A stretch of 22,381 nt of DNA from a virus (taxonomy: Duplodnaviria > Heunggongvirae > Uroviricota > Caudoviricetes): IMG/VR virus record IMGVR_UViG_3300006204_000424, positions 1-22,381 of that record; one strand, 5' to 3'. A program made the position numbers and the translations under genes. Positions within the stretch are counted from its first letter, which is position 1. The number at the start of each line of letters is the position of its first letter. The notes beneath the pieces were generated by a model. That model made no database searches, was not told the DNA's origin, and saw only the letters and a program-made list of their open reading frames with translations. Positions 16,714 through 22,381 of this stretch are shown here, piece after piece.

Positions 16714-18998
16714 ATGGATACAAATCAGTTTTTAATTGAGCTTCAAGCAATATTAAATAAAGAAGTTTCAAAAGGAAATATCGACAAATCCATTATGCGA
16801 CTGCAAGATCAAATTCAAAAATTACAATTGCGAGTCGAAATCAATCCAAAGGATTTGTTAAAACTTAAAACGCAAATAGAAAAGATAACGAATCAGAAAA
16901 TCAAAATTCCCAATATTGGTTTTGATTCAGACAACGCAATTAAAGAGGCTCAAAAGACAGCACAGCAAATTGCTAATGCTTCAACTGCTGCTACCACTAC
17001 AATCATTCAGAATGAGGGGAAAAAACAACAGGCAATTCAAAAAACCGCAAATGCTCAGAAACAAATCTCAAAAGATGAATCTTTAATAAAATCAGGCTTA
17101 AATGCGACTACATTTAATAATACAATTGACGCTGCCAAAGTTGCTGCCAACCATTTTAAGGAATTATTAAAAAATGAAAATGCTGTTATTTCTGTATCTG
17201 AGCAATTTGGGAAAACAAATAGTCTTGCATCTTTCACTGTAAATGTCAAAAGAGCTGTTGGCGAAGTAGAAACATTAAGATATGCATTAAGTGAAATTAA
17301 AGATGTAAATGGAAAAGGAACTGGTCAATACCATTTTGTTAACAAAGGCGGAACGATCAATGACTCAAATGCTAAAAAACAAGTACAGCAAATCGAAAAT
17401 GCCTTTGCAAACTACACGCAGAAATTAGCACAGTTTAAATCAACAAACAATAATATCCTATCAGGACTATCCTCTCCCCTATCCGATTTTGAAAATAAAC
17501 TGGCTGGTTTGCGGAACGGGACAGTTACGATTGATGAATTAAGAAACTCTTTTAGTATGCTCAAAGCAGAAGCATCTAAGATTACATCTAATTTATCAGG
17601 CGACTTAAACAAAGTTGATAAAGCTGTTCGTAATATTTCTAAAGGCAAAGAAGCAATAGCCAGTCTAAGGGCAGAATTTAATGGATTACACAGCACTCCC
17701 AAAGATATAAATTCTGAAATTACAAAACTTTCTACTGGACTACAAAACATAAAGAAAATCGAAGCACAAGAAGGACGTTCTGCAAATTGGAGCAAAGCAT
17801 ATAAAGAATGGGAAATTGCCGTTGACAGCTTAAATGCTAAATTAAAAGTCCTAAAAAAAGAGCAATCTAATATTGCAAACACTCAGGTTTTCAAGACTTC
17901 TGATCTTAGGAAAGCAAAGATACCTTATATGAGTAAGGTTTCAAATACCACCGAAAAGCAAATGGCAGAAATCCAAAAAATGGCTAATGCTTATGGGTGG
18001 CAAAAATTTGATGTAAAGAGTATAGAGCAAGCAGATGGTCTGATTAAAAAACTCACCTTGACCATTACTGATGCCGAAGGTGCTATCAAACGCCTTAATT
18101 TCCAAAGGGCTAATTTAAAGGGTAACGGAAAAACACAAGCTGGTCTTATGCAGACAGGTGATGTACAAGTCATTAAAACTGCTTCAAAGGCTCAAGAAGA
18201 ACTTGCGCAAAGTGCAGCAAAAGCAAATGCTAAGTTAGCGGAGCAAGCAAATAAAATACAATTTTCTATAAAAACTGGCGAGTATGAATCTAAAATTGCT
18301 TCGTTAATTGCAAAAACACAGCAATGGACAACTGCCGAAGGAAATGCGCGAATTAGTACAACAAATCTTTCAACTGCATTAATTGAGCTGGATAGAGTTT
18401 CAGAGGCATATGCGAATAACCCAAGTGAAGCAATGCAGAGAAGATTGATTGAATCAAGTAAGAAACTTGATGCAGAATACAAAAAAGTCACAAACTCAGT
18501 TCGCAAAATGAATGCAGAGATAGCGAAAGATTCATCTATTGCTTCATTGCATAACAAAGTTTCTGACTTTATGAGCAAGAATGGGAAGGCAGTTAAATAT
18601 TCTGGAGAATTTCAAAGAATATTTAATGAAACTGCTAAAGGCGCACAATTAACTCGGGAACAGGTTGTAAGGTTAAACCAAGAATTTAATCAGGCGGTTG
18701 TATCAGCACGCAATGCAGGTAAACTTGGGAAAACATTTTTTCAAACTATGAAAGATGGAATGAGTTCATTCAGTTATTGGACAAGTTCTACTTTTATTGT
18801 AATGAAGACATTTTCTGAAATCCGACAGGCGGTTACTACTGTAAAGGAATTAGATACTGCTTTAGTGGATTTGAAGAAAACAACTACAATGACATCCAGT
18901 GAATTGGAACAGTTCTATTATGATGCTAATGACGTTGCAAAACAAATGGGTGTCACAACTAAGGAAATTATTGATCAGGCAAGTGCGTGGTCAAGGCT
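16714..18998 (+). CDS. Tail tape measure protein, exon 1
   Basis: Strong RBS AAGGAGG. Long helical Ala/Lys/Gln-rich chain ending in the start of the tape measure core (VKELDTALVDLKKTT...QASAWSR). Ends in split codon CT|A. Confidence 0.9.
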
Positions 18999-19110
18999 TA
19001 ATCAAATAGGTCTGCTATATGGTAACATATAGGCAATAACCCTCTCAAATCATGGGAAGTCCAGAGATGGATAATCATGAGGGTAATGCATTAAATTATA
19101 AGTAATTTCA

Positions 19111-19135
19111 GTCATCTCTTTTTACCGGAGGTGAT
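19111..19135 (+). promoter_or_regulatory. Hairpin occluding the RBS of the intron endonuclease
   Basis: GTCATCTC / GAGGTGAT pair across the loop and bury GGAGGTGA (19127-34). Confidence 0.65.
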
Positions 19136-19140
19136 TTTTT

Positions 19141-20746: not shown

Positions 20747-20865
20747 GTCGAAAGGCAGTGATTTAACATAATAGATTTCTTTTGATTTACTATTATGTTT
20801 TAGGTGTAAACCAGTGATTTAATAAAAGTTATCTTTTATGAGCAGTTTAATTAGCTGCTCTTTTT
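20747..20865 (+). ncRNA. Candidate small RNA (about 120 nt) nested in intron 2
   Basis: Between the promoter and a terminator, with no ORF or RBS. Hairpins AACATAATAG/CTATTATGTT and ATAAAAG/CTTTTAT; CAGTGATTTAA occurs twice. The start is estimated. Confidence 0.45.
20840..20865 (+). terminator. Intrinsic terminator inside intron 2
   Basis: GAGCAGTT-taatt-AGCTGCTC followed by TTTTT. Confidence 0.65.
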
Positions 20866-21110
20866 CATTTCTTAGGAACAATTTAAAATCTTTATCCGTA
20901 GAGACTGTAATACTTTATATGGCAACGTATAAAGTTAAGTTACTCCCCTACTCTTCCATTTTATAATAAAGACAAGAGGGGAAAGATCCAGTCCAATCTC
21001 ACACAATAATCCCAAATAAAAAGAAATGTGAGAGTTAGCCAGAAATGACTAACCGCCATATTATATGATATGGTCAGTAAGGTAGGGTTTCGCCTGAAAG
21101 TAATAGAATG

Positions 21111-21653
21111 TATGATGAAGAAACCGAAGAGTTTATCGGGAATATTGAAGAACTTTCTGGTAAAATTGCAGATTTGACAAAAACCGCGTCTACTCCTGGC
21201 GGTATAAGCTTATTTACAGATGAAGCAAAAACAGAATATAAATCTACATATCAATTATTAAAAGAAATAAGTGAAATCTATGACCAACTTACAGATAAAG
21301 AACAAGCTGGTCTTCTTGAAGCATTGGCAGGGAAAAGGCAAGGACAAATAATTGCTGCAACTATCAATAATTTTGAAGCGGCTGAAAAAGCATTGGTTAA
21401 TATGGCCAATAGTGCAGGATCAGCAGATGATGAAATGTCAGTGATTATGGATTCACTCGATTATAAGATTAATCGGCTATCTGAAACAGGTGTTTCAGTA
21501 TCCCAAAACCTATTCCAACGTGATGATATGAAGTCAATTATTGATGTCCTTACTTCTGTAATGGAAGTTATAGATGCGGTCACTTCAAAAATTGGACTAT
21601 TGGGAACAATAGGTGTTGGAGCTGGATTATTTGCAGGATGGAAAAATGTCGGT
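21111..21653 (+). CDS. Tail tape measure protein, exon 3
   Basis: YDEETEEFIG...GGISLF...YKSTYQLLKEIS...LAGKRQ...GLFAGWKNVG. The end is set by the P1 pairing of the next intron. Exons 1-3 total 3201 nt, 1067 codons. Confidence 0.85.
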
Positions 21654-22381
21654 AGTCCTAAAATGTATGGACTCAATCATTATTGTTTTGATAAATGCCG
21701 ACAGTATGTTAGTTCTACTGGATACAGTAGTTTAGAACATACGGCTCATGAGATACATGAGTTTAAATGAACAGGCAATATGCTGGGAAAACGGTCAACC
21801 TCACACTACTCCCCTATTCTGGCGACAGAATAGGTTATAGTAAAAATGTGTGAACTCCGTGGGTCAGCAGGGATAGGACTCTTGCAGTCAAGCCCTCACT
21901 GTAGCGACAACCCTGAGTAAAAGTTAGATGCAACGCTGCTTTTATAAGATGCGCTCGATACTCCTGGCATGACAGGGCAATCCTTGACAGATTGTGAAAT
22001 ATGAAAATCTTATCTTTCACTCATGTATTTGTTGGACTCTTGTTACCAGAGGTGATAGGAAGGTAACAAAATACTTTTATACAAATGAAAATTTACCCTT
22101 GCCTAATATATTACGTGGTGTTTTTGGTCTAACTCCGTATACTATACCTCAAGGGGTATTAGTATGCCAGAAACAGCGGCTGTATCTGAATATCTGAAAA
22201 TGTTTCGGTCAGCAAAAAATCTTAACCAGACAGAGTTTGCAAAAGAAATCGGTTTCAGCAGAGCAGAAATAAGTTTAATAGAGCGGGAGTTAGTCGACCC
22301 AACATTACGTACATTAAAGAAAATTGCAGATTACATGGGAATTTCCATTTCTGAACTTCTGCAGGTAGAAACAGACGGTAC
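21654..22381 (+). ncRNA. Group I-like intron 3; 3' end not in the window
   Basis: P1 UGUCGGU (21647-53)/GCCGACA (21697-703) with U-G at the junction. P/Q elements ATGCTGGGAAA and TCAGCAGG, P5 with GCGA loop, P6 GGG/CCC, P8 GTAAAAGT/GCTTTTAT, then AAGATG. P7 is irregular and P3 has only 4 bp. Confidence 0.65.
22164..22381 (+). CDS. XRE-family helix-turn-helix transcriptional regulator, 3'-truncated (missing from the supplied ORF track)
   Basis: MPETAAVSEYLKMFRSAKNLNQTEFAKEIGFSRAEISLIERELVDPTLRTLKKIADYMGISISELL matches the HTH_3 pattern. RBS AAGGGG 7 nt upstream. Confidence 0.9.
   Translation, partial: MPETAAVSEYLKMFRSAKNLNQTEFAKEIGFSRAEISLIERELVDPTLRTLKKIADYMGISISELLQVETDG

Follow-up and report, generated by a model that had tools for sequence, protein, structure and literature searches.

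A phage tape-measure gene probably split by three group I introns, the third with a predicted remote 3′ splice site and multi-gene cargo

Group I introns in tape-measure protein (TMP) genes have been known since 2008, when they were described at three sites (TMP-IVS1, TMP-IVS2 and TMP-IVS3) in prophages of the Bacillus cereus group (Tourasse and Kolsto 2008, PMC2504315). Here we analyse a TMP gene that appears to hold three such introns in a tailed phage, IMG/VR record IMGVR_UViG_3300006204_000424. The DNA studied, referred to as the window, comprises the first 22,381 bases of this 86,381-base viral contig (34% G+C), and window numbering equals contig numbering. The B. cereus introns resemble those described here in their host gene, in occupying several sites (with up to two introns per gene), in being in-frame insertions with early stops, in having P1 helices adapted to the site and in having lost some of their endonuclease genes (PMC2504315). 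Unlike them, the introns described here number three in one gene, and a blastn comparison of intron 2 and the intron 3 ribozyme with 50,697 phage records showed no similarity. The B. cereus survey (PMC2504315) describes neither a remote 3′ splice site nor cargo of several non-nuclease genes, as modelled for intron 3.

A tail gene with three introns is also on record: the part of PMC11878797 that cites Landthaler and Shub 1999 presents the tail tube gene orf142 of phage Twort as a Firmicutes-phage tail structural gene with three self-splicing introns. An earlier note on this DNA, made from the sequence alone, had offered the split gene as the window's best candidate for an undescribed system, with its novelty left open; a premise that the placement of the introns is unprecedented is contradicted by these cases. 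Unlike in orf142, each intron here has a different content, and one of them is 4.6 kb long. The Twort introns are said to be short and to lack open reading frames (ORFs). In the nrdD (sunY) intron of phage T4, a catalytic core at the 5′ end is followed by a single endonuclease ORF of ~0.8 kb and a remote 3′ splice junction. Unlike that intron, intron 3 carries four genes, one of them antisense. IStrons (CdISt1 and BcISt1; Tourasse et al. 2014, PMC4227781) likewise have a ribozyme at the 5′ end, passenger genes downstream and a distant 3′ splice site. Unlike in IStrons, the cargo of intron 3 includes no IS200/IS605 or IS607 transposase and no TnpB (Pfam and PADLOC, all cargo ORFs), its ribozyme lacks the IA2 features P7.1 and P7.2, and it occupies a single codon position in a single gene, whereas IStrons are scattered genome-wide. 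Literature searches turned up no paper on a phage structural gene whose group I intron carries defence-like cargo or several genes of non-transposon type. Judged from sequence, intron 3 is new in combining a predicted remote 3′ splice site with exchangeable multi-gene cargo, and introns 1 and 2 add members to a known intron class.

One reading frame across four exons

We read the locus as a single TMP gene of 2839 codons that three group I introns, belonging to two RNA families, interrupt, and we assign this reading a probability of about 0.7 (Table 1). Joined, exons 1–3 give 1067 codons without a stop, their joints reading AWSR-L-GYS and MRIRG-YDEE, and all four exons give a stop-free product of 2839 amino acids (aa); without joining, stops lie 11–38 codons past each junction (38 codons past KNVG at junction 3). 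The predicted ligated junctions are CAAGGCT joined to AGGATAC (junction 1), TTCGAGGT joined to TATGATG (junction 2) and AATGTCGGT joined to ATATTCAGA (junction 3), and the junction peptides predicted from the joined frame are LGYSSNK, GYDEETEEFIGNIEELSGK and NVGIFR. A GAAGGAGG ribosome-binding site lies upstream of exon 1. When the sequence was re-read by hand, the exon and intron coordinates of the earlier note, and its arithmetic, proved correct. So did its observation that the broken ORFs join in frame where a 5′ exon ends in U and the intron in G: the joined frame is open and aligns to uninterrupted TMPs.

The uninterrupted TMP of Brevibacillus phage Sundance (2528 aa) aligned in a single stretch with the product of exons 1–3 (2e-61), and the C-terminal part of exon 1 aligned to the uninterrupted TMPs of Sundance and of two IMG/VR relatives, L005 and L006. 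Ten IMG/VR relatives were recovered with exon 3 at 55–81% identity. Sites 1 and 2 are both contiguous in seven relatives (L005, L006, L008–L011 and L013), and spliced residues 736–905, which span junctions 1 and 2 and all of exon 2, aligned without a gap to L005 (90% identity) and L006 (86%). This contiguous, gapless alignment in close relatives without the interruptions indicates that interruptions 1 and 2 are precise in-frame insertions.

At junction 3, the frame also breaks just after KN(V/F/I/T)G in L003, L005–L010 and L013. Past the break the nucleotides are conserved yet translated in differing frames among phages, a hallmark of a conserved RNA. L011, L012 and L014 are unbroken at this codon, and the ORF of L011 runs on for 1813 further codons that match, in the same frame, the downstream TMP-like ORF of the studied phage (26275–31593, 1773 codons, the next after the KNVG break). 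Junction 3 (between residues 1067 and 1068) falls inside a single blastp high-scoring segment pair (query 668–1091, 1.6e-118) against the uninterrupted 2759-aa TMP of L011. Exon 4 matched the TMP family PHROG 4211 at profile positions 955–1391, and a Pfam scan of the separate TMP pieces gave no match. Homology to annotated TMPs, colinearity with them and a position in the tail module all support the tape-measure assignment. The ORF fragments thus behave as exons of one gene, as the earlier note had proposed, with the joined product aligning to intron-less TMPs across all three junctions; failure to do so would, on that note's own terms, have spoken against it.

In annotations of such phages, the TMP is routinely entered as two to four separate 'tape measure' genes divided by 'islands'. 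In Thomasclavelia phage TR-TP1 (L002), positions 5248–12360 hold separate TMP coding sequences with two 'HNH endonuclease' (DUF2726-like) genes between them; the genome of this phage is deposited as complete and names the host strain, so split TMP genes also occur where a host is assigned. Insertions elsewhere in the same conserved region of the TMP were found at ~aa 955 and further on in TR-TP1, near site 2 and at ~aa 955 in L003, and at ~aa 864 in L007.

Table 1. Exons, introns, ribozyme models and cargo of the interrupted tape-measure gene (contig numbering)
Feature	Position	Strand	Description	Basis
TMP exon 1	16714-18998	+	2285 nucleotides (nt), 761 codons + 2 nt, final base T	ORF list, alignments
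Intron 1	18999-20193	+	1195 nt, final base G	Read from sequence
Intron 1 model, 5′ part			P1 AGGCU(18994)/GGUCU(19009); P2 19015/19026; P3 CCCUC(19040)/GGGGG(20067); P4 UCAUG(19050)/CAUGA(19076)	Manual
Intron 1 model, 3′ part			P5 UCC/GGA (19060-19071); P7 GAUCA(19174)/UGAUC(20097); P8 20072/20083; P9 20105/20131; P9.1 20138/20153; omega-G 20193	Manual
Intron 1 ORF	19195-20046	+	283 aa, homing-endonuclease-like; after 5′ strand of P7	
TMP exon 2	20194-20566	+	373 nt, final base T	tblastn to Sundance TMP and TR-TP1; gapless versus L005, L006
Intron 2	20567-21110	+	544 nt, no ORF, final base G	Read from sequence
Intron 2 model, 5′ part			P1 GAGGU(20562)/GCCUC(20578); P2 20583/20595; P2.1 20603/20620; P3 UAAC(20631)/GUUA(20939); P4 UCGG(20638)/CCGA(20667); P5 20649-20660	
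Intron 2 model, 3′ part			P6 20680/20880; P7 GACUG(20903)/CAGUC(20989); P7.1 20913/20927; P8 20943/20974; P9 20998/21028; P9.1 21034-21053; omega-G 21110	
P6-loop insert of intron 2 (~215 nt)	20690-20875	+	Promoter-like site, ~100 nt of hairpins, terminator-like hairpin	Pattern scan, fold
TMP exon 3	21111-21653	+	543 nt, final GGT after KNVG	IMG/VR relatives
Intron 3	21654-26277	+	4624 nt, extends 3.9 kb beyond window, final G26277	
Intron 3 ribozyme part	21654-22075	+		RNAalifold, covariation
Intron 3 model, 5′ part			P1 UGUCGGU(21647)/GCCGACA(21697); P2 21704/21737; P2.1 21745-21761; P3 CAGG(21772)/CCUG(21912); P4 21781/21865	
Intron 3 model, 3′ part			P5abc inside P4; P6 21870-21895; P7 UG[U]AGCG(21900)/CGCUCG(21952); P8 21917/21936; P9.0 UACU(21959)/AGUA(26272); P9 21963-21976	
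XRE-family double helix-turn-helix protein	22164-22658	+	165 aa; window holds 22164-22381	Pfam HTH_3 twice (1.9e-23)
AAA_15 ATPase	~23203-24717		Beyond window	Pfam AAA_15 2e-27; PADLOC NsnB 6.8e-62 (best model)
289-aa ORF, no family	24717-25583		Beyond window	
Sense-strand terminator	25588-25615		AGACACC-loop-GGTGTCT then T6	Read by eye
Zinc-ribbon ORF	26162-25809	-	118 aa, antisense	
TMP exon 4	26278-31593	+	Beyond window	

Ribozyme models and the 3′ splice site of intron 3

All three interruptions have the look of group I introns, as the earlier note had held. Each 5′ exon ends in a U opposite a G in P1 (AGGCU/GGUCU in intron 1, GAGGU/GCCUC in intron 2 and UGUCGGU/GCCGACA in intron 3), each intron ends in a G (G20193, G21110 and G26277) after which the frame is restored, and a core with P3–P9 in canonical order could be modelled in each, with weaker support for introns 1 and 2.

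For intron 3, RNAalifold applied to 11 homologues gave 59 base pairs, 38 of them with compensatory changes, in the order P1-P2-P2.1-P3-P4-P5-P6-P3′-P8. Its helices include a P2 with an inner hairpin, P3 (CAGG/CCUG) around P4 (UGCUG/CAGCA) and a branched P5. The invariant stretches left unpaired after P6 (UCACUGUAGCGAC) and after P8 (AAGAUGCGCUCG) form the P7 pseudoknot, UG[U]AGCG/CGCUCG, both strands of which change together in the alignment in L005 (UGUAAUG/CAUUCG). The resulting core has a P3/P7 pseudoknot, and the studied phage keeps every invariant core position of the alignment. The 422-nt segment folded better than 100 of 100 shuffled sequences (z = -3.2). An assignment of GGGAAAACGGUC to J8/7-P7 was ruled out, since covariation and comparison with intron 2 place it in P4-J4/5-P5.

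Covariation in relatives speaks for both predicted ends of intron 3, although P10 is weak in the studied phage. The last 6–7 exon nucleotides pair with the P1 guide, ~45 nt downstream of the cut, forming a U.G at the cut itself; within the family the two strands vary together: GUCGGU/GCCGAC in the studied phage and several others, UUCGGU/GCCGAA in L006 and ACAGGU/GCCUGU in L009. In a copy at 4886–5347 of L042 (minus strand), the U.G at the cut is replaced by C.A through changes on both sides. A C.A pair has the same geometry as U.G. In group I introns, the last exon base is 'exceptionally a C' (PMC4227781). Seven homologues with both ends share a 3′ end of the form AGU(A/U)(U/C)G, followed by AUAUUC, or a near variant. 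The AGUA before the last two intron bases pairs, as P9.0, with the UACU directly 3′ of P7 (AACU/AGUU in L039); P9.0 has 3–4 bp in the intron 3 family. In P10, the first six bases of exon 4 pair with the six bases 5′ of the guide; all six pairs form in L030, L010 and L046, five in L006 (with two compensatory changes) and four in L039 (with one).

The models of introns 1 and 2 draw on a second RNA family. The 3′ half of intron 1 aligns with that of intron 2, and both align with introns in L035/L041, L047 and L048; P9 and P9.1 carry compensatory changes in this family, with a conserved P9.1 loop, CAGAAAUGA. The intron 2 model, which also has a P9.2 after P9.1, came from comparing three full copies, those of L035 and L047 included; P4 and P6 covary (P4 UCGG/CCGA becomes ACGG/CCGU in L035), P5 is a short hairpin that differs in each copy, and P6, which closes a variable insert, measures 11, 16 and 20 bp in these copies and is unrelated in sequence among them. 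Intron 2 had a fold z-score of -6.6 against shuffles. The three copies occupy different TMP sites, L035 8–9 codons upstream of the intron 2 site and L047 in the C-terminal part of another phage's TMP, and in each the P1 fits the local exon (GAGGU/GCCUC, CGGGU/GCCCG and GAUGGU/GCCAUC). P10 of introns 1 and 2 is 0–4 bp long. Intron 1 follows the same scheme as intron 2; in it, UCCAGAGAUGGA was rejected as P7, because covariation and comparison with intron 2 identify it as P5. We take the two introns to be related, with a P7.1 helix and the CAGAAAUGA loop, and to be recent mobile insertions, of which intron 1 would have kept its homing-endonuclease gene and intron 2 lost or exchanged the content of its P6 loop.

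The intron 1 ORF has Cys-rich repeats and a C-terminal PD-(D/E)xK/DUF2726-like domain; it matched PHROG 559 'HNH endonuclease' (1.7e-48), which agrees with the homing endonuclease named in the earlier note, as well as PHROG 9084 'homing endonuclease' (1e-34) and 7140 'intron encoded nuclease' (3e-26). Matches to Pfam DUF2726 were sub-threshold, and a sequence search of the PDB found no relative of this ORF.

We suggest that late transcription would read through all three introns, and that the internal guide of each ribozyme would pair with the last 5–7 exon nucleotides, leaving a U.G wobble at the cut; free guanosine would then attack and the exons would be ligated using the terminal G. In intron 3, the catalytic core would occupy the first ~330 nt and be followed by P9-type hairpins up to ~420 nt, and the long 3′ region would form a cargo bay that reaches to a 3′ splice site 4.6 kb away, which would be set by P9.0 (UACU/AGUA), the terminal G26277 and P10. 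From these features we infer that all three introns splice. That tail assembly depends on three splicing events, as the earlier note had proposed, would follow from this model but was put too strongly.

Alternative readings of the interruptions

Several observations weigh against a gene spliced at three group I introns. Rfam gave no group I match at the gathering score in the whole window or at E<=10 in 18800–22381, these scans returning only chance-level matches to unrelated families. The covariance-model search that the earlier note had named as a check left RF00028 below threshold for all three introns; the sole RF00028 signal in the contig was a partial match of 10.3 bits (cut-off, 50) at 19050–19080, which coincides with P4-P5 of the manual intron 1 model. 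Large loop inserts often give only partial group I model matches (PMC11878797). The structures of introns 1 and 2 are, moreover, largely manual and come from 4–5 homologues only. The sub-threshold model scores would suit interruptions of another kind, such as group II introns, inteins, programmed frameshifts or plain insertions that make a pseudogene, but we hold this to be highly improbable. The early stops past each junction exclude inteins; there is no GUGYG start, domain V or reverse transcriptase; intron 1 contains a homing-endonuclease ORF; the U and G boundaries go together with a P3/P7 pseudoknot core and with covariation in P1, P9.0 and P10; and dozens of phages have the same elements at precise in-frame sites. 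The other unfavourable points concern intron 3. Its P10 in the studied phage has only 2 contiguous pairs versus 6 in relatives, and a cryptic AGUAUG followed by AUUUUU at 25510–25515, inside the 289-aa ORF, might compete as a 3′ site. A strong sense terminator (25588–25615) lies within the intron in the path of late transcription, the G of the 3′ splice site is also that of an in-frame ATG at 26275 (the AUG of the AGUAUG motif), which would allow separate translation of the C-terminal part, and the record is estimated to be ~52% complete (CheckV). Together with the 4.6-kb length, these points would fit a third interruption that no longer splices here, being a relic or an element that only cleaves, whereas introns 1 and 2 splice; the outcome would be two TMP polypeptides, one ending soon after KNVG and one starting at ATG 26275, or a tail-defective prophage. 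We consider this unlikely, though far from negligible, on several grounds. A ribosome-binding site precedes exon 1 and each of the four cargo genes but not the exon 4 ATG; this ATG belongs to the conserved intron end AGUAYG, and an in-frame ATG, GTG or TTG is absent from the homologous point in L039, L006, L010 and L021; and the invariant core positions, the 7-bp P1 and P9.0 are intact. Length alone is tolerated, since the 5.8-kb intron of L046 has a perfect P10. As a side observation, the guide flank would form a better pairing with the cryptic motif at 25510–25515 than with the authentic site.

A comparable judgement is needed for the P6-loop insert of intron 2, in which the earlier note had seen a promoter–small RNA–terminator unit. 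The promoter and terminator patterns are indeed present: a TTGACA-17-TATGGT site at 20712–20740, with a perfect -35, 17-nt spacing and a TG before the -10; hairpins, one with a GAAA loop; and a clean, sense-strand, U-tailed hairpin at 20840–20860. They are pattern matches, however, at about chance frequency in AT-rich DNA (15 promoter-like sites in the region, 11.6 expected in shuffled sequence), and the insert matched no Rfam RNA family. Related introns carry protein genes at the same P6 spot, a 311-aa Cys-rich nuclease-type ORF in L035 and a 266-aa PemK/MazF-type toxin (6.6e-16) in L047, and loss of the endonuclease gene is the usual fate of such introns (PMC2504315). The L047 intron also speaks for an RNA gene, because its toxin ORF is followed, at the same place in a homologous intron, by TTGACA-17-TATAAT, ~140 nt of hairpins and a terminator. 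A shared origin of the two RNA-like units was rejected when the aligned P6 inserts showed no similarity; the sense-strand unit therefore recurs in layout, not in sequence. We lean slightly towards the insert being the remnant of an endonuclease or toxin cassette that was deleted, or an extension of the P6 structure, rather than a small RNA gene, and a small RNA encoded there is possible. In L047 (3300006153_000012), the toxin ORF lies at 4807–5604 on the minus strand and the promoter unit in the ~250 nt downstream in gene orientation; the two may constitute a toxin with an RNA partner.

Cargo and mobility of intron 3

The earlier note listed an XRE regulator as the cargo of the third intron. 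That gene is present, with a double HTH_3 match starting from 22164, but it is only the first of four genes in the 4.6-kb intron (Table 1). With PADLOC, only the ATPase matched an Nsn model (NsnB); the XRE, 289-aa and zinc-ribbon ORFs matched none, and the NsnA/B/C set was not found. Because only the ATPase matches, the cargo is not a complete known defence system. The Nsn genes are, we assume, those of the Menshen defence system (NsnABC). Protein-atlas look-ups of the 289-aa and zinc-ribbon ORFs returned unnamed clusters only. A promoter and terminator scan of intron 3 gave chance-level matches and missed the terminator at 25588–25615 that had been read by eye. The zinc-ribbon protein has homologues in seven intron copies. 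This small protein has the C-terminal motif CPYC..KKIS..GKQWHCNNCKSDF, and most copies of the intron 3 family, among them ones with a different ribozyme variant, keep its antisense gene close to the 3′ splice site on the upstream side (homologues in L039, L008, L010, L013, L006 and L021).

In relatives, intron 3 carries GmrSD_N/DUF262, Endonuclea_NS_2 and DUF559 proteins and others. Relatives of both intron 2 and intron 3, in which the earlier note had proposed to catalogue the cargo, carry different cargo. Its description of the introns as landing pads for accessory cargo is, for this reason, fair for introns 2 and 3, and the cargo does differ among the introns. Since the cargo genes have their own ribosome-binding sites and presumably their own promoters, the prophage could express them whether or not the tail operon is active. 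Late transcription past the internal terminator, and the timing of cargo expression, we likewise infer.

A 15-mer from the core was found in 32 IMG/VR stretches, ~26 of which are true homologues by blastn, and ~10 further copies were found in metagenome-assembled genomes (MAGs). In bacterial genomes, the 15-mer gave mostly chance matches, and the true copies all lay in MAGs, assigned to Lachnospiraceae/Acetatifactor, Ruminococcus and other Clostridia, with one in a Bacilli MAG; this search thus identified no cultured host, and the probable hosts are Lachnospiraceae or Acetatifactor. Wherever the flanks are long enough to tell, a copy lies behind this one TMP codon, even where the TMP is only 25% identical. 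The shortest insert, of 765 nt, holds only the ribozyme and the antisense zinc-ribbon gene; others measure 1.0–1.7 kb, 4.6 kb (studied phage), 5.8 kb (L046) and >10 kb (L009). Over 309 nt, the ribozyme shares 86–91% identity with copies from genes whose exon 3 protein is only 35–57% identical to that of the studied phage, whereas the phages with the closest exon 3 (76–81%) have far more divergent ribozymes. This mismatch indicates that intron 3 has moved between TMP genes as an independent mobile element.

We tentatively propose, at somewhat less than even odds, that the intron 3 family is a mobile, ribozyme-insulated cargo bay at one conserved codon of an essential tail gene. It would move between unrelated TMP genes and let phages of gut Clostridia swap defence, toxin and regulator genes, splicing over kilobases would erase the insertion in lytic growth, and the antisense zinc-ribbon protein would be an undescribed intron-encoded mobility or control factor. 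If intron 3 splices, a bacterial group I ribozyme can choose a 3′ site from 1 to >5 kb away, and the stretch in between, inside an essential virion gene, would act as an exchange point for accessory and anti-phage genes, which would be a new type of phage cargo hotspot. The system is suited to the study of remote splice-site choice, through P9.0 and P10 covariation, and of late transcription past cargo terminators.

At the same TMP codon, L008 (10508–10994) and L013 (10514–11000) carry a visibly different RNA, one of them ending in KNFD and a stop. Both keep the antisense zinc-ribbon gene and the downstream TMP part and may represent a second ribozyme lineage at the site. Upstream of the tail genes, the window also holds a 382-aa ORF (14095–15243, plus strand) that by eye resembles a class-V aminotransferase or cysteine desulfurase, an unusual phage cargo.

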